From the NCBI GenBank assembly GCA_027452205.1, contig DAIDGV010000024.1, positions 30,750 through 94,749 on the forward strand: a DNA stretch of 64,000 nt. Direction: 5' to 3'. The stretch is from a candidate division FCPU426 bacterium (lineage in GTDB: Bacteria > Oederibacteriota > Muellerivitia > Muellerivitales > Muellerivitaceae). Position 1 is the first letter of the stretch. Each line of letters begins with the position of its first letter. Made by a program: the position numbers and the translations under genes. Of the stretch, positions 16,663 through 52,285 are shown piece after piece. The notes beneath the pieces are model-generated. The model saw only the letters and a program-made list of their open reading frames with translations. It had not been told where the DNA came from and ran no database searches.

Positions 16663-16920
16663 TTATTTCTTCGCCGCGACCCTTTTTTCGATCAGGGCCA
16701 CGAAATCTCCCACGTTGCGCAAGGCCTCCAGCTCGGAAGCGTTGAACTTGATCCCGAACTCCATCTCCACGGCCACGATGATGTTGATATGGTTGAAGGA
16801 ATCCCAACCCTCCACGTCATCCGCGGTGGTCTCGGGCTTCAGGGTGATATCATCGTTCCCCAGCACCTGGGCAAAGATAAGGGTCAGTCGTTGAAAGATC
16901 TCGCTGCGTTCCATGGTCAT
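16663..16920 (-). CDS. acyl/peptidyl carrier protein (DltC-like)
   Basis: 85 aa acidic four-helix protein with a phosphopantetheine-attachment-like …DDVEGWDSFNHI… serine motif. Overlaps the upstream FkbH-like gene by 4 nt. Confidence 0.7.
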   Translation of the reverse strand: MTMERSEIFQRLTLIFAQVLGNDDITLKPETTADDVEGWDSFNHINIIVAVEMEFGIKFNASELEALRNVGDFVALIEKRVAAKK

Positions 16921-18869
16921 TCGCCTTTCTTCACGCGGATAAAGTGGCTGGCGGGCGGTTTTTGGCCCAGCGTCCGGGCCCAGCGGCTCTCGCCCTCAGA
17001 GACGGCCTTCAAGGTCTCGAAGCCCAAACGGGGATAATGCTCTTTCACCATGCCGTTCTTGGCCGTGGCCCGATAGACCCCGATCAACCGTTGGCCGCCC
17101 TTCTGGGCGACCTGCTCCTCTAAAAGTCCCAGCATGGCTTGCTCCACTCCCCGCCCCAGGACCCGGCAGCTCATCAGCCAGCTGTCGATCTCCCAGTCCC
17201 CCTGACCCCGGTCCAGGGCGATAAGGACACCAATGATACCATTATCCCCAAAGCGGTCGGTCAAACGGCACCACAGGGTTACCGCCTTCGGGTCTGCGGA
17301 GAAGTGCTTCACTTCCGCTTCCGTGTGCCGGCGGGTGGTTAGGTTGAATTGGTTGGTCTTATGGAGCAATTGGGCTACCCGGGGCAGATTGACCGGATCG
17401 AAAGTTCCCCAGACCAATTCCATATTGAGGCTTTTCAAATACTCCGAAAGGTCCGTGAAAGAGGCCTGGGCCTGCACGCGTTGCTGGTTTTGCCGGTACT
17501 GTTCGGTACGGGCCAGGTCATCGGATGTTACGCGGACCGACTCGAAATACCCCGCCGAGGCCAGGGTATGGATGAAAAGCGCCGGGTCTTCGGGCATTTC
17601 GGGCACCCGCACCATGGGCAGGGCCTGCCGCACTTGTTCGCGTTCAAAGGGGTTGTCGTCGACGAAGACCAGGGCGTCCAGGCCGATATTAAGTTCCTCC
17701 GCGATCTTTTTCAGGTTGGAGGCCTTGTCGTTCCAGTTGACCGCGAAACAGGCGATGTCGGTCTTTTTGAGGACCATTTCGGGATGTTTGTCGAATGGTT
17801 CCAACCCATTCGTCTCGTCGTTCTTGGAACAGACCGCCAGGATGACGCCCCGCCGGCTCAAGTCCCGGGCGTAACGTTGAAAAGCGGCGTAAGACTCGCC
17901 CAAGGCGCTGCCTTGGCCCAACCGGATGCCTTCTAAACCTTCGTCGCCGATCACGCCGCCCCAAAGGGTGTTATCCAGGTCCAGGACCAGGCATTTGGCC
18001 GACAGCCCCCGCTGGGCCGCTAAAAGCCGGGCCAGCCATTCGCCATAGAGGGGCGCGGCGGCGGGGTTTACCTCTTGTTTCGCTTTGTGCCACAGGACCG
18101 GGTCATGCCATTGGCTCAGACCGTCCACCGCGGCGCGGCCCGCGATGTCCAGCAGATCGACGGAGTTCTCGTCCGCCCAGGACCGCAGGCGCTGTTGAAA
18201 GGTTAGGAGCAGGGCCGCCGGGGAATCCGGCAGTCTTTGCTCGTTGTTGCCCATCAGGGGCTCATAAAGCGGCAGGGGCGTTTGCTGAAGGATAGGGCCC
18301 TTGAACTTTTGCCGGGCCAGCCGCCACAAGGTCACCAGTTGCTGATGGACCGCTTCCAACCGGGTTTCCGCCTCCACGGCGGTCATGCCCGGCGGCTGGG
18401 TGCCGAAAAGATGAAAGGCGTCGAAAGCGAACAAGATCGCGTTGGGGCCAAATTGATGAAGCCGGGACCGGTCGTCGGAAAGTTCCTGCAAGGCCTGGCC
18501 GTAATCGGCCACGTAAGTTTGAACGATCAGTCGGTGGCGAAGACCGCCAATGCGGATACCCGGCAAAAGCTGTTCAACGGTGGAGGACCCCAGCAAGGCC
18601 AGCCGGATCACGGGCAAACCCGGCTCGGCGGTTGAGGCGGTCTTTTCTTGGAGCGCTTTATCGGCTTGCAGGGTTTCGAGGAAGTTCAGGTCGTACCGGG
18701 CTAGGTCGGCCAGAAGGAACAAACCTTCAACCCCCTGTTTTTGTTTAGCCGCTTGGAGGGCTTTGGAAAAATACGGATGTTTGAGAAGCCAAGGCATATT
18801 CATGGGTGAAGAAGACCTCAACTGACAAGATAACGCATTATATAGGGAAAAAGGCCTTCTTCCGTTCAA
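16917..18869 (-). CDS. FkbH-like HAD-IIIC phosphatase-family protein with C-terminal GNAT-like domain (candidate carrier-protein loader)
   Basis: 650 aa. HAD motifs are LVLDLDNTLWGG (DxDxT), AVCSKN and VFVDDNP. The C-terminal region (…NGIIGVLIALD…CRVLGRGVEQAMLG…) resembles the FkbH/GNAT domain. The start codon is uncertain: TTG at 18869, or ATG at 18803/18797. Confidence 0.65.
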   Translation of the reverse strand: MNGRRPFSLYNALSCQLRSSSPMNMPWLLKHPYFSKALQAAKQKQGVEGLFLLADLARYDLNFLETLQADKALQEKTASTAEPGLPVIRLALLGSSTVEQLLPGIRIGGLRHRLIVQTYVADYGQALQELSDDRSRLHQFGPNAILFAFDAFHLFGTQPPGMTAVEAETRLEAVHQQLVTLWRLARQKFKGPILQQTPLPLYEPLMGNNEQRLPDSPAALLLTFQQRLRSWADENSVDLLDIAGRAAVDGLSQWHDPVLWHKAKQEVNPAAAPLYGEWLARLLAAQRGLSAKCLVLDLDNTLWGGVIGDEGLEGIRLGQGSALGESYAAFQRYARDLSRRGVILAVCSKNDETNGLEPFDKHPEMVLKKTDIACFAVNWNDKASNLKKIAEELNIGLDALVFVDDNPFEREQVRQALPMVRVPEMPEDPALFIHTLASAGYFESVRVTSDDLARTEQYRQNQQRVQAQASFTDLSEYLKSLNMELVWGTFDPVNLPRVAQLLHKTNQFNLTTRRHTEAEVKHFSADPKAVTLWCRLTDRFGDNGIIGVLIALDRGQGDWEIDSWLMSCRVLGRGVEQAMLGLLEEQVAQKGGQRLIGVYRATAKNGMVKEHYPRLGFETLKAVSEGESRWARTLGQKPPASHFIRVKKGE

Positions 18870-30690: not shown

Positions 30691-31074
30691 TCAGCCCCTT
30701 CCCCTGGGCTTTTTAGTCGCCTTTTTGGAGGCCATCTCGTTCTTTTTGCCTGTCAATTGGCGGATCTGGAGGGTGGCTAGTTTGGCGCCCTGGGGTAGGT
30801 TTGTATATCGCTTCTCCAGCTTCTGATACCAAGCCAAGGCTTCTTTGGTCTTCCCTTCTTTTTGGAGTTTGTAACCCTTTCGGAACTCCTTTTCGAACTC
30901 GATGAACTTCTCTTGCTCTTCCCGAGAAAGTTTGGTGGTCCAAAGATGGGCGAATTCGGTCAGCGCCGCCATAGTCATGAGATAGATGAAGTAGGGGGGG
31001 AAAGCGTACGCGGCCAAAAGGGCGATGATAGTCAGCCCGCCCCAATCCTCTTTTTTTAAGATGGTCTTAGCCAT
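30691..31074 (-). CDS. hypothetical small membrane protein co-transcribed with the bEBP
   Basis: One TM helix ([25 protein letters not shown]) then a Lys/Glu-rich tail. The stop overlaps the bEBP start (ATGA). The start is uncertain: ATG at 31074 with GAGGGG upstream, or the longer ORF starting at 31143. Confidence 0.45.
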
Positions 31075-31442
31075 GTACCCCTCGTGTAAAAGAACCTGAC
31101 ACCTAAAGACGCAAAAGTGGCTTGCTACAGATTGAACAGTCACATTCTACGCCCGAGCTAAGGGTGCTTGAAGCTTTGGTTTTTGATTTTGCCTTAAAAA
31201 CCCAGTCTCATCCCTGCAAGCCCCCAGACAATGGCGTAAAAATGCAGCGATTCCGTAGCGCAAGGGGGCGCCTCTTGGAAAGCTTCAGTCCCCTGTTTTT
31301 TGCCAAAACCGTGTCGCTCATAACTAAGGACCCACGGGGGGATGGGTGGAGCAGTAGTCTCTCGGCATTCGTAATTTTCTGATCCACGCAGGTGCGTGGC
31401 GGGCTTAAAGGGATGAGGCTAAAAGAAAAAGTCTGCACAAAA

Positions 31443-37242: not shown

Positions 37243-39534
37243 TTAGTCGATCAGCTTTTGAGCGACCGCTTCGAGCACATAAGCCTCGATCTGATCGCCT
37301 TCTTTAAGGTCGGCGCCATCAACACCGATACCGCACTCGTAATTGGTGGCCACTTCTTTGACGTCGTCCTTGAAACGGCGCAAAGAGGTTAAAGGACCTT
37401 CATAGACCATTTCCTCGCCGCGATAGACCTTCACCTTGCACTTGCTGGTGATCTTGCCCGAGAGGACCATGGACCCGGCGATGACGCCCTTAGGCGTGCT
37501 GAAGAGCTGGCGCACTTCCGCGCGTCCGATGACGGCTTGTCGATAGACCGGCTCCAGAAGGCCTTCCATGGCCTTGCGAACGTCTTCCACGGCGTCGTAA
37601 ATGATCTTATAAACACGGACGTCCACGTCTTCTTTTTCAGCGGTGGCCTTACCATTCGAGTCCATCTTCACGTTGAAACCAACGACGATGGCGTTCGAAG
37701 CGGAAGCCAGGAGGATATCCGAATTCACGATATTCCCCGTGCCGCTATGGATAACTTTAAGAATGACCTTTTCGGTCGAGAGTTTTTCCAGGGATTGACG
37801 CAAGGCTTCGACCGACCCTTGCACGTCACCCTTGACGATGACCTTGAGTTCCTTGATCTGTCCCTCTTTGATCTGCTCGAAGAGGTTGTCCAGGGTAATG
37901 TGCTTCATGGCGCCGACCAAGCGGTTATCCTTCTGGGCTTCCGCGCGGCGGCTTGAGATCTCACGGGCCAATTTGGCGTCCTCGACCACATAGAACACAT
38001 CGCCGGCTTGGGGCACATCGTTCAACCCGAGCACTTCCACAGGGGTAGCGGGTCCAGCGGACTTCACCAAATGCGCCAGGTCGTCCTGCATGGCCTTCAC
38101 ACGGCCATAAGTATTACCAGCCAAAAGGTTATCGCCTACCTTGAGCGTTCCTTTTTCGACCAGCAAGGTGGCCACCGTACCGCGGCCTTTGTCCAACCGG
38201 GCCTCCAGCACCACTCCCTTGGCGGTGCGGTTCGGATTGGCTTTCAACTCCAAAACTTCCGCTTGGAGAAGGATCATTTCGAGAAGCTTCTCGAGGTTCA
38301 AACGCTTCTTGGCCGAAACCTCCACGAAAATGGTCTGGCCACCCCATTCTTCAGGCACCAATCCCCTTTCGGCGACCTGGGTCTTGACCCGGTCCGGGTT
38401 CGCTTCGGGTTTATCGATCTTGTTGATCGCAACGATGATGGGTACCTTGGCTTCTTTGGCGTGGTCGATGGCTTCGAGGGTTTGTGGCATCACACCGTCG
38501 TCAGCGGCGACGACCAGGACCACAATATCCGTGGCCTTGGCGCCACGGGCGCGCATCAGGGTGAAAGCCTCATGACCCGGGGTATCGAGGAAGGTGATAA
38601 GGCCTTTCTCATGCTTCACTTGGTAAGCGCCGATATGCTGGGTGATACCACCCGCTTCGCCTTCGGCCACCTTGGTCTTACGGATGGCGTCCAGCAGCAA
38701 GGTTTTCCCATGGTCAACGTGACCCATAATGGTCACCACCGGAGGACGGGAAACGAGGGTTGTCGGATCTTCAGCTTCTTCTTGGAGCATTTCGGTGCCG
38801 AACAAGGGAACCACTTCCACTTCGGCGTCATGGGCCCCGGCCAATGTTTCGGCCACGGTCATGTCCAAGCGTTGGTTGATGGTGGCGAGGATCTTGAGGT
38901 CGAACAATTCCTTGATGAGTACGCCCGGTTTCACGTTAAGCTTTTGGGCCAATTCAGAGACCGTAATGCCTTCGCTGATCTTGATCTTGGTCAGGACCTT
39001 CTTTTCGCCGGACTCGTCCACATTGGCGTGTTCCAAGGCTTTGAGCTTTTCTTCCATGGAAAGCTCGGGTTTGGCCGGGGCCGCGGCAACGTTTTTCTTC
39101 CGGGCCGCCATACCATGACCGCCGGACTTACCGGGCATCGGCGGCTTAGCGCCGACAGGCACCTTGCGCGGAGCGATCGTCTTGGGTGCCGGATAGGTCG
39201 CGGTGGGAGATGGATTTTGATTGTACTGAGGTGCACCCAGCTTCATGCCGGGACGCAGCGTGGTGGTGATCTTCGGGGCGGCTGGTCGGGCCGTGGGAGC
39301 CGCAGCGGTGGCGGTTGTCGCCGGAGTTTTGGTCGGAGGCGGTGGGGCGGTCGCCACAGGAGTGACCGAAACCAGGTCCGCGAGACCTAAGTCTTTGCGA
39401 ATGGCCGATTGAATGGCGTCGTCCACCAAGGTCAATTGGCTGGGCACCACAAAACCGAGCTTCTTGCAGCGGTCGAGTATGTCCTTACTAGGAAGGTTCA
39501 GTTCTTTAGCGAATTCAAAAAGGCGTTTATTCAT
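37243..39534 (-). CDS. infB: translation initiation factor IF-2
   Basis: 763 aa; N-terminal IF2_N ([13 protein letters not shown]), proline/alanine-rich linker, GTPase G-domain ([17 protein letters not shown]), and C-terminal beta-barrels. Confidence 0.93.
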
Positions 39535-39537
39535 GGA

Positions 39538-40827
39538 TTATTCGTTTCCTTCGCTTTCCGTAACAGGGTCAATATGGGGAATCACCGGTAACCCGGCCTC
39601 ATCCTTGGTTAATTCCACTTCGGCCGGCACTTCGCCGGTCACCGCGCCCTCGTCGATCTCATCCGGAGGGGCCGCGGCCTTTTCTTCATCGGTCTTGAAA
39701 ACGGCTTCCGCCGAGGGGGCCGCCGCAGGGGCTTCCTGTTCCTCACCGGTCACTTCCTGGAAGTGGGCATCCATGCGGGCGCGTTCTTCTTGGGCGTGCT
39801 GTTCTTCGTTCTTGATGTCGATCTTAATACCCGTCAAACGGGCCGCCAAACGGGCGTTCTGGCCCTTCTTGCCGATGGCTAAGGACAACTGATCATTGGG
39901 CACGATCACTTCCGCCGAAGGAATTTCAGGATGGAACACAATGCGCGCAATCTTGGCCGGCGACAAGGCGTTGGACAGATAGGAATGAGGGTCCTCGTCC
40001 CAACGGACAATATCCACCTTCTCACCGTGGATCTCGTCCACGATGTTCTGCACACGGATACCCTTCACGCCCACGCAAGCGCCCACTGCGTCGATACGGT
40101 CGTCGCCCATGGAACGCACGGCGATCTTGGTGCGGGCCCCGGCTTCGCGGGCCACGTTCTCGATCTTCACGGCGCCGTCATAGATCTCCGGCACTTCCAA
40201 TTCGAACAATTTACGGACTAGGCCCGGATGGGCGCGGCTAACGATGATGGCGGGACCCTTCAAGGTCTTTCGCACTTCAAGCACCAACAACTTCATGCGG
40301 TCGCCGGTGGCGTAATGCTCCCGGGGAACTTGTTCCTTGGCAGGCATCATGGCTTCGGTGTCGCCCAGGGACACGATGACATTGCGGCCTTCGTAGCGAA
40401 GGATACTGCCGGTGATGATGTCGCCTTCCTTTTCCTTGAACTGATCGAACACGCTTTGGCGCTCGGCATCCTGGACGCGTTGCACGATGACCTGCTTGGC
40501 GGTTTGCGCGGCGATGCGGCCGAACTGTTCGTTAGGAATGCGCACCTTGATGACCCCGCCCAATTCGGCGTTGGCGTCCAATTTGCGAGCATCTTCCAAT
40601 TTGATCTGGGTGGCGGCATCTTCGATCTTGTCGACGACCTCTTTTAAATAAAAAGCCCGGAACTCATAGTTGATCTCGTCGAACTCCACGTCCACTTCCT
40701 GATTGGCGCCATAGACCTTCTTGGCGGCTGACGAAAGGGCGGCTTGGATCGCCTCGATGAGTTTTTTCTTATCGATGCGTTTTGTATGTTCCAGTTGGCT
40801 CATCACTAAAGCTAATTCGTTACCCAT
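39538..40827 (-). CDS. nusA: transcription termination/antitermination factor NusA
   Basis: N-terminal domain, S1 domain and two KH domains are recognisable. There is an acidic C-terminal extension. Start ATG at 40827 (alternatively GTG at 40836). Confidence 0.9.
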   Translation of the reverse strand: MGNELALVMSQLEHTKRIDKKKLIEAIQAALSSAAKKVYGANQEVDVEFDEINYEFRAFYLKEVVDKIEDAATQIKLEDARKLDANAELGGVIKVRIPNEQFGRIAAQTAKQVIVQRVQDAERQSVFDQFKEKEGDIITGSILRYEGRNVIVSLGDTEAMMPAKEQVPREHYATGDRMKLLVLEVRKTLKGPAIIVSRAHPGLVRKLFELEVPEIYDGAVKIENVAREAGARTKIAVRSMGDDRIDAVGACVGVKGIRVQNIVDEIHGEKVDIVRWDEDPHSYLSNALSPAKIARIVFHPEIPSAEVIVPNDQLSLAIGKKGQNARLAARLTGIKIDIKNEEQHAQEERARMDAHFQEVTGEEQEAPAAAPSAEAVFKTDEEKAAAPPDEIDEGAVTGEVPAEVELTKDEAGLPVIPHIDPVTESEGNE

Positions 40828-40859
40828 GTCCCTCACTCCAAGTAAGCGTAGGTTAAGCG

Positions 40860-41321
40860 TCAGATCTCAACGACCAAATTCGATCGCTTCACAGCCTTGA
40901 AAGGCACCCAAAGGGTCCTTTTTCCATCCACGACTTCCACTGACCCATCCTTCACTTCGCCCAATCGGCCTCGGAAGGTGATCATCCCCTCAACCGGCTC
41001 GGCGAAAACGAACTGAGCCAAACGGCCCGAGAACCTCTGGCAATCTTCCAAATGCCGCAAGGGCCGGTCCATACCCGGCGAGGAAACCTCTAGCAGATAA
41101 GAAGGACCAATCAGGTCCAACTCATCAAGCTTCTTCTCCAGCTCCATGCTGACCGCCGCGCATTCTTCCACAGTGATCTTGCCGGACTTCTTATCGATGG
41201 CCACCGACACCGTCAATTTCTTGCCTTGGGGGCGCACCGTCAGGTCGAACAACTCGACGAAGTTGTCTTTCGCCACGGCCTCGGCCAATTGCCTCAGTTG
41301 CCCGACCTGGGTCATATCCAT
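40860..41321 (-). CDS. rimP: ribosome maturation factor RimP
   Basis: 153 aa from the ATG at 41321, which has a GAGGG Shine-Dalgarno. RimP N and C domains (…LFDLTVRPQGKKLTVSVAID…). The longer ORF-track frame would read through an upstream terminator hairpin. Confidence 0.85.
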   Translation of the reverse strand: MDMTQVGQLRQLAEAVAKDNFVELFDLTVRPQGKKLTVSVAIDKKSGKITVEECAAVSMELEKKLDELDLIGPSYLLEVSSPGMDRPLRHLEDCQRFSGRLAQFVFAEPVEGMITFRGRLGEVKDGSVEVVDGKRTLWVPFKAVKRSNLVVEI

Positions 41322-41375
41322 AGATGCCCTCAAATAAAAAACGGCCTTTCGGCCGCAGGTTTGTCCCAACAGGTG

Positions 41376-41409
41376 AAAAAAAAAGTGGGCCTGGAAGGGC
41401 CCACTTTTT
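41376..41409. terminator. bidirectional terminator between polC and rimP
   Basis: AAAAAAAAA-GTGGGCC-TGGAAG-GGCCCAC-TTTTT. Confidence 0.6.
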
Positions 41410-41637
41410 GGGACTGCCTTAAATTCGAGCGTTATTCTATGCAGAAAGCCCTTTGAAGGCAAGGGAAGGCCCTGAAAATGGCCGGAAATAAAGGGTTTTA
41501 AGGGCTAGCAGGTTGTTGAAAAAGTCAGGTTTAGGGACTTTTTCATACTTACGAACGAGCCGCCCATCATAAAAACCACGTTTTAAGTGGCTCGTTCTAA
41601 CCCATGGCGGCCGACAGGAAGCTTTATCGGCTTCCTG

Positions 41638-44600
41638 TTAAAAAAGCGAAACCTGTTTGGAATCGGGCATATTCTTGAGACATCCCGTTTCCTTAAGGAT
41701 CTCAATGACGTTCTTGTTCACCCCGCAGCGCTCCGTAATGTCCTCAATGGAGGTATAGGGGCCCTTTTGGCGATCTTCCTTGATGGATTCCGCTGCGGTC
41801 TCGCCCAACCCCGGCAAGCCGATCAGCGGTGGGCGAAGCATCTTCTCCCCGTTGGATTCCTCGACGAGGAACTGGCTACTGTCGGATTTATAGATGTCGA
41901 CCGGCAAGAATTTGAATCCTCGGGCATAGACCTCTTCCACCACATCCAGCACGGAGGCTTCGTCCAGTTCTTTGTTCGTGGGTTTTTCCAGGGAACGGAT
42001 CAATTTGATGCGGTCCTTGGTACGGCCGAGACCGCCGCAAGCCACGATCGCGTCAAAACCGAAAGCCTTATTGGTGAAATAGTCGGCGTAAAAAGCTAAG
42101 GGATGATGCACTTTGAAATAGGCGATACGGAAACTCATGATGCAATAAGCCACCGCGTGGGCTTTTGGGAAGATATATTTGATCTTCCGGCAGCTTTCGA
42201 TGTACCAGACCGGGGTCTTCACATCCTTCATGGCTTGTTCGTATTCGGGTTTAAGACCCTTGCCCTTACGCACATCCTCCATGATCTTGAAGGCCAGAGC
42301 CTCGTCCATACCCCGGCCCACGAGATCGTTCAACATATCATCCCGGGTCGAGACCACTGTGGCAATGGTGGCGGTCTTGTTCTTGATGAGGTCTTGGGCA
42401 TTGCCCAACCAAACGTCCGTACCGTGGGCCAATCCCGACAGACGCACTAAATGCTCGAACTTGGTCGGTTTGGTGTCCCTCAACATGTCCATGGCGAAAT
42501 TGGTGCCGAACTCGGGTACGCCTAAGGTACCCAGATCTTTGTCGATCTTGGTCTTGAGATTGAGGGTCGAGGTGTCGGAAAAAAGTTTCATCGTTTTTTC
42601 GTCGTTCAACGGAATGAAGATGGGATCAACGCCCGTCATGTTCTGCAGGCGCTTCAGGCTGGTCGGATTATCATGGCCGAGAATGTCGAGTTTGACCAAA
42701 CAGTCGTGCATACTGGCGTAATCGAAATGGGTCGTGACGATCTCGCCATCTTTATTGTCCGCCGGATGCTGCACCGGGCAAACGTCCGTGATCTCGATGT
42801 CTTGAGGAAGAATGACGATACCGCCCGGATGCTGACCGGTGGTTTTTGAAACCCCTGAGCAGCCCTTGACCAACCGGTTGAGTTCCGCGTTCCGGGCCTT
42901 TTTCCCTTGTTCTTCCACATATTTCTTCACAAAACCATAAGCGATCCGGTCTTGGACCGCCGAGATGGTACCCGCGCGGAAACAGTGGTCCTTGCCGAAA
43001 AGTTCTTCTACATATTTATGGGCGTGGTGCTGGTACTCGCCGGAGAAGTTCAGGTCGATATCCGGCATCTTGTCTCCCTTGAAACCCATGAAGACCTCGA
43101 ATGCGATACTGAACCCGTCCCGGATCATTTCTTTGTCGCACTTTGGACAGTTCTTGGAAGGCAGGTCCACCCCCGCAGTCGAGGCGGGTTTTTCGGGGAA
43201 CTCATGATGAAGGTCTTCCGCGCAGCGCCAATGCGGCGGCAAGGGATTGACCTCGGTAATGCCGCTCAAGAAAGCCACGAAAGAACTGCCGACGGACCCA
43301 CGGCTTCCAACGATGTATCCGTCCGACAGGGACTTGGTGACCAGCTTCATCGCGATCACATAGAGCGTCGCGAACTTGTTATTGATGATGGCATCTAATT
43401 CCTTGTTGAGACGCTTCTCAATAAAGGCCGGCAAGGTCTCGCCGTAAAGAGCATGGGCCTTGTCGATCGCGGTCTTTCGCAGCTGCTCGTCGGCCCCTTC
43501 CCAATTGGGAGATAAGGTCTTGGTGGGCAACGGCTCCACATCCTCGATCATCGCGGCGATCTTTTGCGGGTTGGTCACCACCAGCTCGTGGGTGATCTCT
43601 TCGTCGAAATAGGAAAAATCATCCTTCAGCTCATTCGTGGTCTTGAAAAAAAGCGGGGCCTGGCGTTCAATGCCGTAACCCATTCCCGCTTGCAGGATCT
43701 TGCGGTAAACCCCGTCCTGGGGTTCGATAAAATGGGAGTCACCAGTGGCCACGACCGGCTTGCCCAGCTTTTTGCCGGTCTCATAGATGACCTTGGTCAG
43801 GGATTGAAGCTCCTCCATGTCCTTGACCGTCCCGTCGGAGATCATGAACTCGTTATTGGCGCAGGGCTGGATCTCCACGTAATCGTAAAACTTCGCCACT
43901 TCTTCGATAGGTTTGGTCTTGTGCAGCAAATGCTGCCAAATCTCGCCCTGTTCGCAGGCCGACCCGACCACCAAACCTTCGCGGTGCTGTTCTAGTAAGG
44001 CCTTCGGGATCAGGGGACGTTTATAGAAGTACTTCATGTGGCTTTCAGAGACCAATTGATAAAGGTTCTTGAGGCCTGTGCGGTTCTTCACCAGAAGGAT
44101 GATGTGGTATATCTCCATGCCCCGTTCGCGCTTGAACTCATCCACGAGATAGCCTTCGATGCCCAATATCAGCTTGATCCCATGCTTTTTCGCGGCCGCC
44201 TTGGCGTCCGGATAGGCCTGGACCACCCCGTGGTCCGTAATGGCGATCGCCGGATGTCCCCATTTGGCGGCCCTTTCGATCAAGGCTTCGATCTTCGAAA
44301 GGCCGTCCATCCGGCTCATCTGCGTGTGGCAGTGAAGCTCCACCCGTTTCTCTGTAGCTGTATCCATACGGCCCGCAGGCCGTCCCACTTTAACAATATC
44401 CTTTGCCGTCAAAGTCAGCTCGTCGGCCTGGTACTTATCGAACCGAAGGTCCCCCCTCACTTTGACCCAATCCTTCTCTTTTAACCCGCCTTTGAATTTT
44501 CCGTCGTTCTCGTGAAAGAGCCGGATATCCAGCGAGTCATTGAAATCCGTGATGGTCATCTTGACCAAATGTCGTCCGCTACGGGTTTGGAACTCCTCAT

Positions 44601-45375
44601 ACAGGATGATCTCGCCCTCGACCACGTAACCATTGGCCTCGTCGGTCACGCTCATAGTCTGGGGGTCCGCGGCGATAGTGCGGCCAAAGATAAGGGTCGA
44701 AATTTGGGCCTTGGGCGCGTTCGCTTCTGCCGGTTTTTGTTCGGGTTCGGGAGGTAATTCGGGCATGACTAGGGAGTTGATCTCAAGCTTCACTTCCAGT
44801 TCGACACCACAACGGGCCCGCAGGACTTCTTTAGTGAACTTTTCACATTGGCGGCGTTCTAACTGCTGGCGGGCCAGCTCATGGGGCACTTGGATCAACA
44901 AGGTCGGCCCCTCGACCTTGAATTGATAATGGGAGAACCACCCTTCGGCGATTTCCGCATCTTCCATCAGACAAAAAACAAAATCCTTTTGATGGCAAAC
45001 CAGATAATCCGCCGGCGCCATGACCCCGGCCAAATAATGCACGTCCAGCACTACGCGGTTCACACCGGGCATACTTTCTTTTAAATGCGTGGAGACATTG
45101 GTATAGCATTCGGCGCTCACGGGCTTGGGCATACGCAACCGAAGGACCAGGATTCCCTTTTCGGGATAGATCTGGACGCCCAAAACCTCGGACTCCATGA
45201 ACTTTTCTTTTTCATGGCACTCGAGGGGGATCTGTTGAAGTAATTGGTAAAAAGGAGAGGCGGATGTTTCGGTTTCCGGGGACGACGGACTGCTGACGGG
45301 TGTCATCCTGCCTCCATCAAAGATCATGTGGGAATGGGTCAAAGGAGTGAGCGAAGTTCTTTTTGAACTATACAA
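41638..45375 (-). CDS. polC: DNA polymerase III alpha subunit, PolC-type, lacking the inserted 3'-5' exonuclease domain
   Basis: 1245 aa. An N-terminal domain plus OB fold precede the PHP domain. …VELHCHTQMSRMDG…KWGHPAIAITDHGVVQAYPDA…KKHGIKLILGIEG… is near-identical to the Firmicutes PolC PHP. The PHP region is contiguous with no DEDD exonuclease insertion. The C-terminus carries PolC-type tandem HhH (…GVNKNVIEILKETGCL…QVSLF). Confidence 0.85.
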   Translation of the reverse strand: MYSSKRTSLTPLTHSHMIFDGGRMTPVSSPSSPETETSASPFYQLLQQIPLECHEKEKFMESEVLGVQIYPEKGILVLRLRMPKPVSAECYTNVSTHLKESMPGVNRVVLDVHYLAGVMAPADYLVCHQKDFVFCLMEDAEIAEGWFSHYQFKVEGPTLLIQVPHELARQQLERRQCEKFTKEVLRARCGVELEVKLEINSLVMPELPPEPEQKPAEANAPKAQISTLIFGRTIAADPQTMSVTDEANGYVVEGEIILYEEFQTRSGRHLVKMTITDFNDSLDIRLFHENDGKFKGGLKEKDWVKVRGDLRFDKYQADELTLTAKDIVKVGRPAGRMDTATEKRVELHCHTQMSRMDGLSKIEALIERAAKWGHPAIAITDHGVVQAYPDAKAAAKKHGIKLILGIEGYLVDEFKRERGMEIYHIILLVKNRTGLKNLYQLVSESHMKYFYKRPLIPKALLEQHREGLVVGSACEQGEIWQHLLHKTKPIEEVAKFYDYVEIQPCANNEFMISDGTVKDMEELQSLTKVIYETGKKLGKPVVATGDSHFIEPQDGVYRKILQAGMGYGIERQAPLFFKTTNELKDDFSYFDEEITHELVVTNPQKIAAMIEDVEPLPTKTLSPNWEGADEQLRKTAIDKAHALYGETLPAFIEKRLNKELDAIINNKFATLYVIAMKLVTKSLSDGYIVGSRGSVGSSFVAFLSGITEVNPLPPHWRCAEDLHHEFPEKPASTAGVDLPSKNCPKCDKEMIRDGFSIAFEVFMGFKGDKMPDIDLNFSGEYQHHAHKYVEELFGKDHCFRAGTISAVQDRIAYGFVKKYVEEQGKKARNAELNRLVKGCSGVSKTTGQHPGGIVILPQDIEITDVCPVQHPADNKDGEIVTTHFDYASMHDCLVKLDILGHDNPTSLKRLQNMTGVDPIFIPLNDEKTMKLFSDTSTLNLKTKIDKDLGTLGVPEFGTNFAMDMLRDTKPTKFEHLVRLSGLAHGTDVWLGNAQDLIKNKTATIATVVSTRDDMLNDLVGRGMDEALAFKIMEDVRKGKGLKPEYEQAMKDVKTPVWYIESCRKIKYIFPKAHAVAYCIMSFRIAYFKVHHPLAFYADYFTNKAFGFDAIVACGGLGRTKDRIKLIRSLEKPTNKELDEASVLDVVEEVYARGFKFLPVDIYKSDSSQFLVEESNGEKMLRPPLIGLPGLGETAAESIKEDRQKGPYTSIEDITERCGVNKNVIEILKETGCLKNMPDSKQVSLF

Positions 45376-45474: not shown

Positions 45475-46290
45475 TTACGGCTCAAAAAAGATCCCGAGTC
45501 CCCAATAACTTTCCGGGGACTGATAGAACTGACCATAAGGGCTGTTCCCGGTATAAAAAACAAGAGCTGTCTGAATGGACTGATGGCTGTCCCGGTGCCA
45601 CTTATATTGTAGCCCGATCTGCAAAGTTTGATCGACCACACCTCCCGCCTCACCCAGGATCTTGATGTCATAGGTCGCGTAACCGCGGATCTGTGTACCC
45701 AAGATAAAATGGGAGAAATCGGTATAACCTTCGATACCGCCGTGGAAAAAAAGCCGCGGGTCATTTTCATCCGGGGACAAGTGGGTCCAATAACAAGGTC
45801 CGCCATAGATCCTGAAATTATCAAAAAGATGATCGGAAAATGTCAGTCGGAGACTTTCCCTGGAATAGATGATGTGGGGAAATTGGTAAAAGAACTCGTC
45901 CCCCAGATGGGAACTGACATGTTCATATTCCAACCGGCCAGAAAAGGTCCCTGCGACATAACTGAAGTAGGTTCCCAAGTACCAATCGCTGACCCGTAAC
46001 GGAAAGATCGCGTTACCCAAAGAATCCAATTGGAGATAAGAATCACCCTCGATACCCCAGCCCCATTGGGACGCGTCCTGGGGCTGCCATTGAAGGATCT
46101 CGATCGTTTGGCCAATGGAGCCGTCGTAATGGTTCTTGTCCGGCTGAGCGATGATGCCATACTGCGGCTCCCGCAGGTCGCCGATCAAAGGTTCGAACAA
46201 GGGTTCCGCTGGCAAAAAAGTCCATCGATCAGCCCAGGCGCCCGAGCTCGTGGCCCAGAAGAAGAGGAGAAGGATGATCTTTTTCTTCAT
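45475..46290 (-). CDS. hypothetical secreted protein, paralog 1 of tandem pair (possible outer-membrane protein)
   Basis: 271 aa; signal peptide MKKKIILLLFFWATSSGAWA. Shares with its neighbour W-FLP…P-IGD-RE, …HLGD…, and a C-terminal aromatic-rich …YGQFYQSPESYWGLGIFFEP. Confidence 0.55.
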   Translation of the reverse strand: MKKKIILLLFFWATSSGAWADRWTFLPAEPLFEPLIGDLREPQYGIIAQPDKNHYDGSIGQTIEILQWQPQDASQWGWGIEGDSYLQLDSLGNAIFPLRVSDWYLGTYFSYVAGTFSGRLEYEHVSSHLGDEFFYQFPHIIYSRESLRLTFSDHLFDNFRIYGGPCYWTHLSPDENDPRLFFHGGIEGYTDFSHFILGTQIRGYATYDIKILGEAGGVVDQTLQIGLQYKWHRDSHQSIQTALVFYTGNSPYGQFYQSPESYWGLGIFFEP

Positions 46291-46302
46291 GTCGCTCGGT
46301 CC

Positions 46303-47139
46303 TTAAAAATCGAAAAAGGTTGCCAGGCCCCAATGAGAATCTGGCTGGTTATAGAATTGGCCGTATTGGCTCAATCCGTTGTAATAAAGGATCGCCATGC
46401 GGATAGCCCGGGGCTCGTTCGGCGAAGCTTTCCACTCGATACCCAATTGGAATTCCAGGTCCCAAATGGAATATTCAGCGTCCCATTTGCCATAACCAGT
46501 GAGATAGGACCGCATGGAACTGGAATCGATCTTCCAATAGGGGGAATAGAACTCCGTTCCAAGGGAAGCGTAATATTGGACCGTGTCGCCCACCACAAAA
46601 GGTAGGTCCCAAATACCCGCCCTTGAATAGACCCGGAAATAGTCGCAAGGTTCGAAGGAGACGGTTTCCTCGATAGCTTCTCGCGAATAATTCACGGCCG
46701 GACTATAAAAAAGAGGGATTTGGATACCTTGAAGAGAATCGCCCAAGTGAGTGCTTTCATGGAAGGCGTCGAGCTTGAAGGAAAAGTCGCTCAAACAACT
46801 CGAAAGGTAGGTGCCGATATAAAAATCCCCGTCCCGCATCGGAAAGGTGGCCCCATCCTCATCCAACAGGATGAAAGCCGAGGCGAAAAGTCCCCAACCG
46901 AACTGGATATCCTCTTGGGGCGCGTAACGGATCAATTCCAAGCTGCCGCCGACTTGGCCTTCATAACGGACCGAATCCAAATGAGCGGTGATACCCGTCA
47001 GAGATTCCCGAAAATCCCCGATCATAGGTTTGAAGACCGTACTCGAGGGTAAAAAAGACCAATCCGAAGCGCCAGCCCACAGCGGTGACGTTCCAGAAAG
47101 AAGGATGAGGAGGGAACTAACCTTTAAGAATTTTTTCAT
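46303..47139 (-). CDS. hypothetical secreted protein, paralog 2 of tandem pair
   Basis: 278 aa; signal peptide. Alignable with paralog 1 along its length. C-terminus …YGQFYNQPDSHWGLATFFDF. Confidence 0.55.
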   Translation of the reverse strand: MKKFLKVSSLLILLSGTSPLWAGASDWSFLPSSTVFKPMIGDFRESLTGITAHLDSVRYEGQVGGSLELIRYAPQEDIQFGWGLFASAFILLDEDGATFPMRDGDFYIGTYLSSCLSDFSFKLDAFHESTHLGDSLQGIQIPLFYSPAVNYSREAIEETVSFEPCDYFRVYSRAGIWDLPFVVGDTVQYYASLGTEFYSPYWKIDSSSMRSYLTGYGKWDAEYSIWDLEFQLGIEWKASPNEPRAIRMAILYYNGLSQYGQFYNQPDSHWGLATFFDF

Positions 47140-48271
47140 AGGCGCTGATCATGCGTTTGGCCATCGAGGTTGAGGACCATTTATCCGCTTCCGATAAAGT
47201 TTCGGATTTTTTCTGGTCGTAAAGCTTCGGGTCGGTCAACATCCGGCGCACCGCGTCGGTGAACTCGTCCTCGTTCAGTTTGGTCACCAAGCCACCCTTG
47301 CTGGACGCCATCACGTCCTTGATGCCCATCTCGCCTACAGCCACCACCGGCGTACCCGCCGCCATGGCCTCGGTCACGACCAACCCTTGGGTCTCGGTAA
47401 TGGAAGCGAACACGAACAGGTCGGATCCCGCGTAACAATCGCGCCAATCCTCTTTGCTGAGATACCCGGCGAAATGAACGATATCTTGCATTTTGAGTTC
47501 ATCGACCAGTTTTTCCAAACGCTTCTTGGCGGCCCCTTCCCCAGCGATGAGGAAACGGATCTGAGGGATCTCCGGACGGAGACGATGGACGACCTTGATG
47601 AGGAAATCAATGTTCTTCTCTTCGGCGACCCGGCCCATGAAGAGCAGCAATTTATCGCCCGGTTTATAACCTTTAAGGTTCCGGAAACGTTCCCGGTCCC
47701 GTCCCTCGAAACGTTGAAGGCGGATGCCTGTCGGGATGACCTCGATGGGTTTCGTCACGTTATAGCTCAACAGAACGTTCTGCATTTCAGTGGACGGTGT
47801 GATGAGCAGGTCACAAGAGTTGCAGTATTTTCGGCTGGTGGACTTGGCATACCAAATACCCAGCGCTTTGGGCAGGAACCAAAGGTAATGTTCGGTATAA
47901 GCGGCGAAAAGCGTGTGATAGGTATGAACGACCTTGGCCCCGCTTTTGCGGGCCCATTTCACCGCAGGGCCGCCGATCGTGAATGGCGTCTGGGTATGAA
48001 CGATGTCGTATTTCTCATCGATGAATTGTTGGACCAGCTTTTTATCCTTGCTCGGCAGGCCCAAACGGTCTTCCGGATCGAAGAACAAGTACATGGAAGG
48101 AAAGCGGAAAACCTTATAGTGGTCGCTGTCATCGATGGAATTGGGAAAAGCAGGGGCGTAAATATGGACTTCGTGGCCTAACTTGCCGAATTCCTCAGCG
48201 AAAATCTGGGTAGAGGCGGCGACCCCGTTGATGCGGGGAAAATAGGTGTCGGTGACCAAGGCGATTTTCAC
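47117..48271 (-). CDS. glycosyltransferase family 4 (GT-B, retaining)
   Basis: 384 aa. N-terminal MKIALVTDTYFPRINGVA sugar-acceptor domain. C-terminal E-x7-E-like donor-binding region (…GEGAAKKRLE…ETQGLVVTEAMAAGTPVV). Confidence 0.8.
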   Translation of the reverse strand: MKIALVTDTYFPRINGVAASTQIFAEEFGKLGHEVHIYAPAFPNSIDDSDHYKVFRFPSMYLFFDPEDRLGLPSKDKKLVQQFIDEKYDIVHTQTPFTIGGPAVKWARKSGAKVVHTYHTLFAAYTEHYLWFLPKALGIWYAKSTSRKYCNSCDLLITPSTEMQNVLLSYNVTKPIEVIPTGIRLQRFEGRDRERFRNLKGYKPGDKLLLFMGRVAEEKNIDFLIKVVHRLRPEIPQIRFLIAGEGAAKKRLEKLVDELKMQDIVHFAGYLSKEDWRDCYAGSDLFVFASITETQGLVVTEAMAAGTPVVAVGEMGIKDVMASSKGGLVTKLNEDEFTDAVRRMLTDPKLYDQKKSETLSEADKWSSTSMAKRMISAYEKILKG

Positions 48272-48289
48272 GTCGGACCTTTCATACGT

Positions 48290-50017
48290 CTAGGGTGTGC
48301 AGAACTTCCATTCGACTTCGGCCACTTCTTTCACTTTGTTCATTACGTCGGCCACTACCACTTTGGCCACGTCCTTTTCCCGGCGGCGTTTGATCTCGAC
48401 CAGGCCTTCTTTAAGGCCCCGCGCGCCAACCCGTACCGAAATAGGGAATCCTAGCAGGTCCGCGTCCTTGAACTTGAACCCAGCGGAAGCTTCCATGCGG
48501 TCATCATAAAGAACCTCATAGCCTGCCTGTCTTAATTTTTCGTAAAACTCGTCGGCGATCTTGGCCACTTCCGGCTCCGCCGGGTTCAGGCAAAGCAGGT
48601 GAACTTGATAAGGCGCCGTTGCGATAGGCCAGATGATGCCATCCGCATCATAATGCTGCTCGATGGTTGCCGCTACCGTGCGGGTCACGCCGATGCCATA
48701 ACAACCCATGACCGCTTCTTTATCTTTGCCGTCCTCGCCCAGGTACACGCACTTCATGGCTTGAGAATATTTGGTGCCTAGTTTGAAGGTTTGGCCCACT
48801 TCGATGCCCCGCCCCACTTTCAATTCTTTGCCGCATTTCGGGCAACCATCGCCGTTGATCACATTACGGAAGTCGCCCCACTCGGGTTCTGCAAAGTCTC
48901 GTCCAAATTCCACACCGGTCAAATGGATATCTTTCTTCAATCCGCCGGTCACATATTGGTGACCACCCTGTAAGGCCTTGTCCGCCAGAATCTTCACTCC
49001 CGACAGGCCCACTGGGCCGGCGAAACCCACCGGGGCTTTGGTCACTTCATAGACCTTTTCCCCGCTCGCCAAGGCGATCTCGGCCGCTTGCAGGTGATTT
49101 TGAACTTTCACTTCGTTCACATCATGGTCGCCCCGCACCAGCACCACCACCGGTTTGCCATCCGCGATGAAGACGAGAGTCTTAATGAATTGGCTAGCGG
49201 GCAATTTTAAAAGAGCGCCCACATCCTCGACCGTGTGTTTGCCCGGTGTGGAGACTTCTTGAAAAGGTCCGCCCGCGGCCGCGGTCGCGTGGGGCGTGGG
49301 ATTGCCGAAAGCTTTTTCCAGATTGGCCGCGTAATCGCAGGAAGAGCACATGGCCACCGCTGCTTCGCCGGTGTCAGCCAACACCATGAACTCATGGGTA
49401 AAGCTGCCTCCGATAAGACCCGAATCCGCCTCGACTGGCGAGAAGTTCAATCCACAGCGTTTAAAGATGCGTTTGTAAGCTTCGACCATGATCCAATAGG
49501 TCTTGTCCGCCGCCGCGTCATCGACATCGAAGGAATAACCATCCTTCATCAGGAACTCACGGCTGCGCATCACGCCAAAGCGGGGGCGTACTTCGTCGCG
49601 GAACTTGGTGGCGATCTGGAACAGGTTCATCGGTAGTTGTTTGTAGCTCTTGAGTTCCCGGCGGACCAGATCCGTGATGACCTCTTCGTGGGTAGGCCCC
49701 AAGGCGTAATCCCGCTCATGACGATCCTTGACCCGCATCAGTTCTTTTCCATATTTCTGCCAGCGGCCTGTTTCCTGCCACAATTCCGCCGGGGTCATGA
49801 TAGGCATCAGCACTTCTTGCGCGCCCGCCCGTTCCATTTCCTCCCGGATGATCTGGTTGATCTTGAGGATGACCTTCTGGCCCAGGGGCAGGTATTCATA
49901 GAAACCCGCCGCGACCTTGCGCATCAACCCGGCCCGAAGCATCAGCTTGTGGGACGGGATCTCCGCTTCTTGGGGTGTTTCTTTAACGGTGGGAATGAAG
50001 GCTTTCGAAACGCGCAT
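48290..50017 (-). CDS. proS: proline--tRNA ligase (bacterial type with editing domain)
   Basis: 575 aa; class II aaRS motifs, INS editing domain and C-terminal anticodon-binding domain. Confidence 0.92.
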   Translation of the reverse strand: MRVSKAFIPTVKETPQEAEIPSHKLMLRAGLMRKVAAGFYEYLPLGQKVILKINQIIREEMERAGAQEVLMPIMTPAELWQETGRWQKYGKELMRVKDRHERDYALGPTHEEVITDLVRRELKSYKQLPMNLFQIATKFRDEVRPRFGVMRSREFLMKDGYSFDVDDAAADKTYWIMVEAYKRIFKRCGLNFSPVEADSGLIGGSFTHEFMVLADTGEAAVAMCSSCDYAANLEKAFGNPTPHATAAAGGPFQEVSTPGKHTVEDVGALLKLPASQFIKTLVFIADGKPVVVLVRGDHDVNEVKVQNHLQAAEIALASGEKVYEVTKAPVGFAGPVGLSGVKILADKALQGGHQYVTGGLKKDIHLTGVEFGRDFAEPEWGDFRNVINGDGCPKCGKELKVGRGIEVGQTFKLGTKYSQAMKCVYLGEDGKDKEAVMGCYGIGVTRTVAATIEQHYDADGIIWPIATAPYQVHLLCLNPAEPEVAKIADEFYEKLRQAGYEVLYDDRMEASAGFKFKDADLLGFPISVRVGARGLKEGLVEIKRRREKDVAKVVVADVMNKVKEVAEVEWKFCTP

Positions 50018-50125
50018 GGACTTCCTTACAAAGAAGATGGACCGGACAAAAGACGAGGGGCCCGGCCTAGGCCGAACCCCTCAAGTCGACTATTTTCACC
50101 AAAGCCGGAAAGACCGCAAGACCTT

Positions 50126-51223
50126 TTACTTCTTCTCGGTCATTTCCTTTTGGCGCTTTTTGATCTCTTCGATCAGGTTCGGGACCAGGTCTTCTTCTTT
50201 CAGGCGGCGTTTGATCTTCCCGCCCTTTTCAATGATGACGCCATGGCCCTTTTCGGAGCAAAGGCCGACATCCGCCTCGGCGCCTTCGCCCAGTCCGTTG
50301 ACCACGCAGCCCATGATGGCTACCCGCATGGGGGTCTTCATGGTGAGGGTCGCGGTCTCCACTTGATCGACCATCTTCTCCAGGTCCACATGGCAGCGCC
50401 CGCAGGTGGGGCAAGCCACGATATCGACCCCTTCTTTACGGTAACCCATGGAACGGAGCAGGTGGGTCGCCACCTTCACTTCTTCCACCGGGTCCGCGGT
50501 GAGGGAAACACGGATCGTGTCGCCGATACCATCGGCCAACACCGCGCCGATACCCGCCGCGCTCTTGGTCGTGCCTTGCATCTTGGTCCCAGCTTCGGTC
50601 ACACCGACATGGAACGGATAGTCGCATTGTTCAGCCAAGAGACGATAGGAACGGATCATGGTCGGCACATGGGAGCTCTTCACCGAGATGATCATTTGGT
50701 GGTAATCAAAGGTTTCGATGAACTTGATATGGCGCATGGCCGATTCGACGATGGCTTCCGGGGTCGGGTGCCCGTGCTTTTCGAGGATGTCTTTTTCGAG
50801 GGAGCCCGAGTTGACACCCACCCGCATGGCCACATTGTGCTTTTTGCACTTTTCGACCACTTGGGCCAAACGGTCCATCCCGCCGATGTTACCCGGATTG
50901 ATGCGGATCTTATCCGCTCCGGCGTCGACCGCGCCTAAAGCGATCTGGTAAGCGAAATGGATATCCGCCACCAGAGGAACGGTCATTTTGGCTTTGATCT
51001 TATCGAGCACTTTAAGGGACTGTTGGCTTTCGACCGTCACGCGGATGATCTCGCAACCCGCGTCTTCCAGTCGTTTGATCTGATCGATGGTCTCTTGCAC
51101 GTCATAGGTATGGGTATTGGTCATCGATTGAATGGAGACGGGGGCGCCGCCGCCTACTTGGACTTTACCCACCATCACCGCGCGGGTCTTCCGGCGGGGG
51201 ATCTCGTAGAACATTTCAGCCAT
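50126..51223 (-). CDS. ispG: 4-hydroxy-3-methylbut-2-en-1-yl diphosphate synthase (GcpE)
   Basis: 365 aa; TIM-barrel N-domain (…VSIQSMTNT…) and C-terminal 4Fe-4S Cys motif (CPTCGRC…). Confidence 0.92.
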   Translation of the reverse strand: MAEMFYEIPRRKTRAVMVGKVQVGGGAPVSIQSMTNTHTYDVQETIDQIKRLEDAGCEIIRVTVESQQSLKVLDKIKAKMTVPLVADIHFAYQIALGAVDAGADKIRINPGNIGGMDRLAQVVEKCKKHNVAMRVGVNSGSLEKDILEKHGHPTPEAIVESAMRHIKFIETFDYHQMIISVKSSHVPTMIRSYRLLAEQCDYPFHVGVTEAGTKMQGTTKSAAGIGAVLADGIGDTIRVSLTADPVEEVKVATHLLRSMGYRKEGVDIVACPTCGRCHVDLEKMVDQVETATLTMKTPMRVAIMGCVVNGLGEGAEADVGLCSEKGHGVIIEKGGKIKRRLKEEDLVPNLIEEIKKRQKEMTEKK

Positions 51224-51391: not shown

Positions 51392-52285
51392 ATGTCCACC
51401 AACACCTTGGTCCTATCCGCGGGAAGCTTGGGTGATTCGATCTTAGCCTTGCCCGCCTTGCAACAACTTCAGGCCCGGTCACCGGTCACCTTGGCTGGCA
51501 CTTCTCCTTACATTCAAATGGGCGCCTCCCTCTTAGGGGTGGAAAAAGTGGTTCCTCTGGAAGGTCTTCTTCAAGTCATCCACGCGGATCAAGCTCTGGA
51601 CAAGGCCTTTTGGGATGGATTTTCCGACGTTTATGTTTTTTTCAAGGACCGGGACCCCAAGTTGATCGAGCGGCTCCAAGGTCTTTCTCACTTGAAGCTT
51701 CATTTATCCTCCGAGACCTTCGCGGAATTCTTGAAGAAAGAGCGGTGGGCCGGGGAATATTGGCTCAACTTGATCCAGGACAAGACCCCTTCCTCATCCG
51801 AAACCTCGCATTCATGCCGCCTTCACATCACACCCGACATCCTCGAAAGAGGCGCCCTCCTTTGCGACTTTTTGGGCGTTTTGAACCCCCTGATCATCCA
51901 TCCCGGCAGCGGTAACCCGGCCAAGAACGCACCTTTGGGCTTTTTCAAGAAAGCCGCCGAAAAAGCCGCTAAAGAATCCGGAAAAGATGTCCTGGTCATT
52001 TGGGGCGATGCCGAGCTTCAACAAGCTGACGAGATCATGGAAACTTTTAAAGGGATGGAAAAGGTGAAGGTCCTGCCCGACCTTTTGATGCTCCGGGACC
52101 TGATCGCGGTCTTGACCCAAGCCCGGGGTTATCTGGGCAACGATAGCGGGGTCACACATCTCGCTTCCGCTTGCGGCGTAAAGACCTTCGCGGTCTTCAA
52201 TTCCACCGACGCCAAGGTCTGGGGCCCTCAGGAAGCCATCATCCTGGCCGCCATGCAGACCCTCTACTCAAGCAAGGATCAGTGA
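51392..52285 (+). CDS. glycosyltransferase family 9-like (LPS heptosyltransferase-like) protein
   Basis: 297 aa. N-terminal SAGSLGDSILALPAL resembles the GT9 RLSSLGDVVLTLP motif. C-terminal YLGNDSGVTHLASACGV resembles GNDSGPMHLAAA. Confidence 0.6.
   Translation: MSTNTLVLSAGSLGDSILALPALQQLQARSPVTLAGTSPYIQMGASLLGVEKVVPLEGLLQVIHADQALDKAFWDGFSDVYVFFKDRDPKLIERLQGLSHLKLHLSSETFAEFLKKERWAGEYWLNLIQDKTPSSSETSHSCRLHITPDILERGALLCDFLGVLNPLIIHPGSGNPAKNAPLGFFKKAAEKAAKESGKDVLVIWGDAELQQADEIMETFKGMEKVKVLPDLLMLRDLIAVLTQARGYLGNDSGVTHLASACGVKTFAVFNSTDAKVWGPQEAIILAAMQTLYSSKDQ

Follow-up and report, generated by a model that had tools for sequence, protein, structure and literature searches.

A PolC-type DNA polymerase III gene without the inserted exonuclease domain in the candidate phylum FCPU426

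The hallmark of canonical PolC is a DnaQ-like DEDDh exonuclease (Exo) inserted in the PHP domain, which is present in 86% of PolCs. In a survey of about 2000 genomes, Timinskas et al. (2014, NAR 42:1393, PMC3919608) found that 6% of PolCs are without the Exo insertion and that the PHP sites of PolCs are generally conserved. All of these Exo-less PolCs were in Clostridia and Negativicutes, save an extra copy in Thermotogae, and their hosts pair PolC with DnaE1 (PMC3919608). A 2026 survey by the same group covered complete genomes only and does not mention FCPU426, which in NCBI is a candidate phylum of its own, with an uncertain position. A full-text literature search on FCPU426 returned ecological papers only. 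Here we analyzed the polC gene of an FCPU426 bacterium, located in a stretch of 64,000 nucleotides (hereafter the window; GenBank assembly GCA_027452205.1, contig DAIDGV010000024.1, positions 30,750 to 94,749 of the forward strand). Judged by its sequence, the gene encodes a real, intact PolC-type DNA polymerase III alpha subunit without the built-in proofreading exonuclease domain. Because Exo-less PolC was already reported in 2014, the architecture is known and the host phylum is the new element, together with the Firmicutes-type ispG-proS-polC-rimP-nusA-infB synteny found there and the clade-specific loss of a zinc-module cysteine.

The longest open reading frame (ORF) on the minus strand, 45375..41638, has 1245 aa, the length that the initial annotation gave for the protein. 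The TTG at 45375 is, however, just the earliest codon at which translation could begin. Further in, the ATG at 45306 has GGAGG 5-7 nt ahead of it, and the 1222-aa product starting there is 100% identical to database protein P0001. Translation therefore likely starts at 45306, so that the ORF of 1245 aa exists but the protein probably has 1222 aa. Residues are numbered throughout according to the 1245-aa ORF. The features of the gene are as follows.

41638..45306, minus strand: polC coding sequence (ORF, GGAGG before the ATG, identity to P0001, PolC equivalog scores)
44782..45252, minus strand: PolC N-terminal domains NI and NII, residues 42-198 (Pfam PF14480, E 7e-5; PF11490, E 2e-6)
44389..44625, minus strand: OB fold, N-terminal to PHP as in the PolC arrangement, residues 251-329 (Pfam PF01336)
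43696..44349, minus strand: PHP domain, uninterrupted, residues 343-560 (Pfam PF02811 at 346-496, ligand columns, AlphaFold2, Foldseek)
44104..44154, minus strand: Exo junction ...GYLVDE-FKR-ERGMEIYH..., residues 408-424 (MAFFT alignment, AlphaFold2 model)
42259..43485, minus strand: polymerase core with palm, thumb and fingers, residues 631-1039, catalytic D772/D774/D897 (Pfam PF07733, PF17657)
43126..43233, minus strand: zinc module C718-x2-D721...C743-x2-C746, residues 715-750 (alignment of 119 PolCs)
41659..41919, minus strand: tandem helix-hairpin-helix (HhH), HHH_6, residues 1153-1239 (Pfam PF14579, E 7e-15)
41641..41655, minus strand: C-terminal QVSLF, a beta-clamp-binding-type motif, residues 1241-1245 (C-terminal pentapeptides of 119 PolCs)

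The domain order given by Pfam, N-terminal domains-OB-PHP-Pol3-(HhH)2 with OB before PHP, is that of PolC. Both PolC equivalogs of NCBIfam matched above their cut-offs (NF001688, 1384.8 bits vs 873; TIGR01405, 1263.6 vs 1043.45), whereas all DnaE models stayed far under theirs (best 256.8 bits vs 1002). These scores and the N-terminal OB fold bore out the initial assignment to PolC rather than to DnaE. The equivalog match fell into two stretches, and the Exo part of the profile was skipped: at query residue 420 the match resumes at profile position 612.

The query was aligned by MAFFT with 118 homologues, giving 119 PolCs; of the homologues, 39 have Pfam RNase_T and the 79 others are Exo-less. 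Between query residues 413 and 417, the 39 Exo-bearing PolCs hold 198-203 aa and the other 79 hold 0-10, where the query has 3 (FKR). The site of the DEDD exonuclease of about 200 aa inside the PHP domain is thus represented in the query by a short loop of about 10 residues. Pfam gave no RNase_T (PF00929) match in the query protein, and the ExoI, ExoII and ExoIII motifs (DxETTG, HNxxFD, HRAxDDA), present in the Exo-bearing inserts, were not found in it. A hidden Markov model (HMM) built from the 39 Exo inserts recovered the clostridial positive controls L016 and L017 at E ~1e-82. With these controls recovered, it gave no match in the window translated in six frames (best E = 2) and none within 10 kb of polC in 19 other loci, all FCPU426-type ones included. 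No ORF of at least 150 aa in the window was DnaE or DnaQ, and no second C-family gene was seen in the window or within 10 kb on either side of polC in the relatives.

Comparison with PolC structures gave the same picture. The query aligned continuously with the delta-Exo Geobacillus PolC 3f2b (E = 0, 1054 bits), while the full-length PolC 9qpc aligned in two pieces (query 173-446 to 188-470 and query 412-1245 to 632-1471), leaving out about 470-632 of its chain. Residues 330-640 were modelled by AlphaFold2 with a predicted local distance difference test (pLDDT) of 90.4 and a predicted template modelling score (pTM) of 0.87, and the junction was modelled as strand, short loop and strand, with a mean pLDDT of 92 over the ten-residue block holding the loop. 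The best structural matches of the PHP model in Foldseek were 3f2c/3f2b (TMq 0.85, 314 columns). Full-length PolC structures needed 479-512 columns against the same model, 9qpc the maximum of 512. The alignment, the motifs, the HMM and the model together indicate that the exonuclease domain is cleanly absent and that the PHP barrel is continuous, as the initial annotation had proposed; mapping the domain boundaries against PolC references brought out no divergent ExoI/II/III set. Its further claim that the PHP segment is nearly identical to that of Bacillus PolC was overstated, since the identity to Geobacillus PolC is about 62% in the N-terminal PHP segment and 44% over the whole PHP domain.

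The same architecture was found throughout the closest relatives. The 43 closest homologues including the query, taken from NCBI, JGI, ENA and Logan assemblies, share 57-100% identity and are all without the Exo insert; they are 1153-1248 aa long, all but one within 1216-1248 aa. A scan for related loci, in which each GTDB species was represented by one genome, returned 17 loci with 71-86% identity from bog, palsa and soil metagenomes, labelled candidate division FCPU426 (9), uncultured proteobacterium (3), uncultured bacterium (4) and bacterium (1). The range of Exo-less PolC is hereby extended from Clostridia and Negativicutes to an entire candidate phylum that is uncultured and is common in soils and peat, and the Exo-less form appears fixed in FCPU426, as it is seen in all 43 clade sequences sampled.

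Apart from the exonuclease, the polymerase active site, the PHP metal site and a clamp-binding-type motif of PolC were retained. All nine PHP metal ligands, whose conservation the initial annotation had proposed to check, are present in the query (H348, H350, D357, H382, E407, H424, C474, D546 and H548), and the nine columns are invariant in 119/119 aligned PolCs. D772, D774 and D897, the aspartates of the polymerase, are part of the motifs PDIDLNF and KLDILGHD, invariant in the same alignment. The query ends in QVSLF, the commonest C-terminal pentapeptide among the 119 (QVSLF in 26, QLSLF in 17), and a QxSLF-type C-terminus was found in nearly all PolCs of the FCPU426 clade; by its sequence QVSLF is a putative beta-clamp-binding motif, of a type with which most of the aligned PolCs end. 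The zinc module keeps C718, C743 and C746, but its second cysteine is replaced by D721, with H723 and H724 nearby. This cysteine is kept in 76/76 non-FCPU426 PolCs and replaced by G, D or A in 43/43 of the FCPU426 clade, most other members having G followed by His at the position. The cysteine may have been exchanged for a His/Asp ligand, or zinc binding may have been lost.

Among described systems, the closest are the Exo-less PolCs of Clostridia and Negativicutes, such as those of Thermoclostridium stercorarium (P0046) and Heliorestis convoluta (P0084). They share with the query the domain order, a junction loop of 0-10 aa, the intact nine-residue PHP site and the C-terminal clamp motif, at 45-53% identity. 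The query differs from those reported by Timinskas et al. in its host, which is FCPU426 instead of a member of Clostridia or Negativicutes, and from the clostridial ones in the clade-wide lack of the second zinc-module cysteine. With canonical PolC (B. subtilis, G. kaustophilus, 9qpc) it has in common the N-terminal domains, OB, PHP, Pol3, HhH, the catalytic aspartates and the clamp motif, but not the DEDDh exonuclease of about 200 aa. The engineered delta-N delta-Exo PolC of Geobacillus kaustophilus (3f2b/3f2c/3f2d) resembles the query in aligning continuously with it and in being its best PHP match without a large gap. This construct shows that the PHP domain of PolC folds, and that the enzyme polymerises, without Exo; it is, however, a laboratory product, whereas the query is natural and keeps its N-terminal domains. 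The DnaE1 enzymes of Thermus thermophilus and Mycobacterium tuberculosis (PMC5636811) also have the complete HHDHEH[C/H]DH site and no integral DEDD domain. They belong to the other C-family branch, with PHP N-terminal and OB C-terminal, whereas OB precedes PHP in the query; exonuclease activity was demonstrated for these DnaE1s, to which the query PolC is likened by the sequence of its PHP site.

We consider that the protein is probably a functional PolC alpha subunit of the FCPU426 bacterium and a natural Exo-less variant, with proofreading by PHP as the best-supported possibility. The intact PHP ligands, polymerase aspartates and clamp motif are the grounds on which we infer this mechanism, and PHP 3'-5' exonuclease is established in the DnaE1 of Thermus and M. 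tuberculosis (PMC5636811; cited in PMC3919608). In this polymerase, which lacks the DEDD exonuclease, a short loop closes the PHP barrel, as in the engineered delta-Exo Geobacillus PolC, and the PHP domain would supply proofreading. By analogy with the known hosts of Exo-less PolC and with bacteria generally, it would be expected to work alongside a DnaE1-type polymerase.

The state of the PHP site was compared across 159 PolCs drawn broadly from an exhaustive HMMER search. Of the 150 best representatives at 50% identity, 140 were included, together with 18 added matches and the query. The intact site HHDHEHCDH was found in 38/39 Exo-less versus 72/120 insert-bearing PolCs (Fisher p = 1.8e-6, kinship being ignored), and the site was degraded in 48/120 of the insert-bearing ones. 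Nine insert-bearing PolCs have an insert of 135-284 aa, none of which reached E 1e-5 in comparison with the Exo profile, and the PHP site is intact in 9/9. Taken together, these counts indicate that PHP degradation occurs almost only where a recognisable Exo remains, a pattern that agrees with what has been published. In the sample analyzed, a PolC whose DEDD domain is missing or unusable thus almost always kept a perfect PHP site, which lends support to a rule by which every C-family replicase retains one candidate proofreader or more. To test whether PHP proofreads in the PolC branch, Exo-less PolCs would be well suited, and current understanding is not overturned by the FCPU426 PolC.

The nine PolCs with degenerate inserts are P0132, P0143, P0148, P0159, P0164, P0203, P0209, P0216 and P0237. 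Against the clostridial Exo HMM their inserts gave E values from 4e-7 to >1, with no match for P0143 and P0164, and the inserts shown have no ExoI motif. They have the look of exonuclease domains in decay, standing between the canonical and the Exo-less form. The sole Exo-less PolC in the sample with a destroyed PHP site (HRSLENSDQ) is P0240 (1178 aa), which would be left without any candidate proofreader; its gene may be decaying, or it may represent a second, accessory copy.

Several points weigh against proofreading by the FCPU426 PolC's PHP domain. PHP exonuclease activity of Exo-less PolCs is read from ligand conservation only, and the ligands are also conserved in Exo-bearing clostridial PolCs, so that their conservation is not specific to the Exo-less state. 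One cysteine of the zinc module is missing in the FCPU426 clade. The negative DEDD scan covers the window and the vicinity of polC, and a DnaQ acting in trans or a dominant DnaE1 may be encoded elsewhere in the genome.

A dominant DnaE1 leads to an explanation that we regard as possible but doubtful. A DnaE1 with its own active PHP domain would be the main replicase, and the Exo-less PolC would have a restricted or auxiliary role in which the loss of Exo was cheap. Timinskas et al. raised the same possibility for Clostridia with PolC and DnaE1, and all PolCs without the integral exonuclease were in genomes having both (PMC3919608); a DnaE-type subunit is present in every bacterial genome surveyed so far (PMC12926913). 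Against an auxiliary PolC stand the strong constraint seen phylum-wide, where identity is 57-100%, the catalytic residues are invariant and the QxSLF-type end is found nearly everywhere, and the place that polC keeps in a conserved housekeeping cluster (see below).

Proofreading in trans, by a separate DnaQ/epsilon-like exonuclease docking on PolC, is unlikely in our view. The PHP site would then have a structural or other role. DnaE1 and epsilon of E. coli form such a pair, and bacteria commonly encode stand-alone DnaQ homologues, on average more than 3 per proteome (PMC12926913). The scan for DEDD domains, which recovered its positive controls, gave none in the window, however, and none in the FCPU426-type loci up to 10 kb from polC. 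Moreover, polymerases relying on DnaQ commonly have a degraded PHP site, as is seen in the DnaE1 of E. coli and in many PolCs of Bacilli (PMC12926913), whereas the nine PHP ligands are invariant here.

Still less probable is a scenario in which nothing was lost. FCPU426 would be a deep non-Firmicutes lineage that inherited polC vertically in an ancestral dxr-rseP-ispG-proS-polC-rimP-nusA-infB cluster, Exo-less PolC would be primitive, and PHP would be the original proofreader. If this were true, the insertion of DnaQ would date after the origin of PolC, and FCPU426 would be tied to the Firmicutes stem. Neighbour-joining (NJ) trees were built from the 118 near matches (midpoint-rooted) and from 160 broad representatives (rooted on the DnaE fragment L021 of the candidate phyla radiation), and in both the backbone was unresolved (bootstrap 0-31). 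Exo-less PolCs are scattered over these trees, with several sister pairs of Exo-less and insert-bearing PolCs at 96-100% bootstrap (P0128/P0131, P0162/P0135, P0167+P0171/P0183 and P0127+P0050+P0046/P0061). Together with the degenerate inserts, these pairs indicate repeated loss of Exo. The FCPU426 PolCs grouped with one another and with P0043, P0045, P0055 and P0165, of which P0055 is itself named FCPU426; they did not fall inside any single clostridial Exo-less group, but the support for this is weak. The placement of four Exo-less singletons close to the root could be a long-branch artefact. Since the backbone and the root are unresolved, the trees cannot tell an ancestral from a derived state in FCPU426; we hold an ancestral Exo-less state for the clade to be quite unlikely.

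That Exo is missing only through an artefact (frameshift, mis-assembly, pseudogene, or a DnaE wrongly called PolC) deserves practically no credence: such errors do happen in metagenome-assembled genomes, the source of the window, but this explanation, part of which the initial annotation had named as a way to be wrong, is already refuted by the single uninterrupted reading frame, by the same junction in 43 orthologues from independent assemblies, by the position of the junction in the confidently modelled ten-residue block, and by the PolC and DnaE profile scores and the N-terminal OB fold.

The genes around polC are arranged on the minus strand in the order hemN-like, grpE, dnaK, dxr, rseP, sucC, sucD, a PMT_2/PA14 protein, a GGDEF protein, ispG, proS, GT4, DUF1207, DUF1207, polC, rimP, nusA, infB, nrnA-like, truB, ribF and pnp. 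A GT9-like gene lies on the plus strand between the GGDEF protein gene and ispG. The two blocks flanking polC are the following.

45475..51223, minus strand: ispG, proS, GT4 glycosyltransferase and two DUF1207 paralogues, upstream of polC (Pfam)
37243..41321, minus strand: rimP (40860-41321), nusA (39538-40836) and infB (37243-39534), downstream of polC

By tblastn, the order ispG-proS-GT4-DUF1207x2-polC-rimP-nusA-infB-nrnA-truB-ribF is conserved across the FCPU426 loci over whatever part of it each locus covers. A clostridial locus, L017, has ispG-polC-rimP-nusA-infB-nrnA-truB-ribF-pnp, and L016 and L019 have ispG-polC. The order in B. subtilis is dxr-rasP-proS-polC-rimP-nusA-...-infB. The position of polC in a Firmicutes-type cluster, as in Clostridia, argues for old vertical inheritance and against a recent stand-alone transfer. 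The initial annotation was right in placing polC directly upstream of rimP-nusA-infB, and its statement that the lineage has a Firmicutes-like organisation of replication genes holds. The gene order around polC is a usable character for placing FCPU426. The GC content of polC is ordinary relative to the window; recent horizontal acquisition of the gene was rejected on this ground and on that of the synteny, which is shared with Clostridia and conserved phylum-wide.

The spacer between polC and rimP contains a conserved two-hairpin region.

41331..41462, minus strand: rimP-nusA leader, with a promoter-like site (41462-41434) and two hairpins with U-runs (41407-41373 and 41356-41331)

The first hairpin is AAAGTGGGCC-CTTCCA-GGCCCACTTT, with a T-run after it and an A-run before it. 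It was missed by a simple terminator scan, and was found by reading the sequence and by a custom scan. Its consensus is AAAGTGGGCC-loop-GGCCyrCTTT-T(n). The second hairpin has the consensus ACGGCC-GAAA-GGCCGT-TTGTCGTTT and lies about 50-85 nt downstream of the first. Both hairpins are present in 14/16 FCPU426-type loci (L001-L015 and L018), L009 and L018 having the first only. The region had been described as a bidirectional terminator: the hairpin with A-run and T-run is real, but there are two tandem elements after a promoter-like site, and the flanking genes are co-directional. It looks more like a rimP-nusA leader or attenuator combined with the polC terminator, which is more specific than a bidirectional terminator. 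The full-length match to the rimP leader of Rfam (RF01770) was below threshold (21 bits vs 47, E = 0.46), and the likeness is limited to the two-hairpin architecture. NusA of B. subtilis is autoregulated by termination in its own leader (PMC12288461), and by analogy the region may be a NusA-autoregulatory attenuator.

A perfect 9-bp hairpin, ACAGGAAGC-cgataaa-GCTTCCTGT, lies at 41612-41637 on the minus strand. Its first base is the last A of the polC stop codon, and no U-run follows it. In L005, L006 and L010 the polC-rimP spacer measures about 0.4-1.6 kb versus about 0.25 kb, the insertion being upstream of the conserved hairpins.

The initial annotation had also taken a GT9-like gene as a sign of lipopolysaccharide synthesis in a diderm host. 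The protein, encoded at 51392-52285 on the plus strand, matches heptosyltransferase in its C-terminal half only (residues ~170-282), and scored 51.7 bits with the heptosyltransferase I model, far below the cut-off of 185.3. As this match is weak, the window alone does not establish diderm status. The two tandem DUF1207 paralogues (271 and 278 aa; 45475-47139, minus strand) between proS/GT4 and polC keep their position across the FCPU426 loci. Each begins with a signal-peptide-like sequence and carries aromatic residues at its C-terminus or close to it (...FFDF and ...FFEP), and the two could be outer-membrane proteins, which would be compatible with an outer membrane.

Elsewhere in the window, two adjacent ORFs of 515 and 508 aa (841-3911, plus strand) and a 150-aa ORF (30691-31143, minus strand) had no Pfam match. 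A 650-aa ORF (16917-18869, minus strand), likewise without a Pfam match, has an FkbH / HAD-IIIC domain according to NCBIfam (308 bits).

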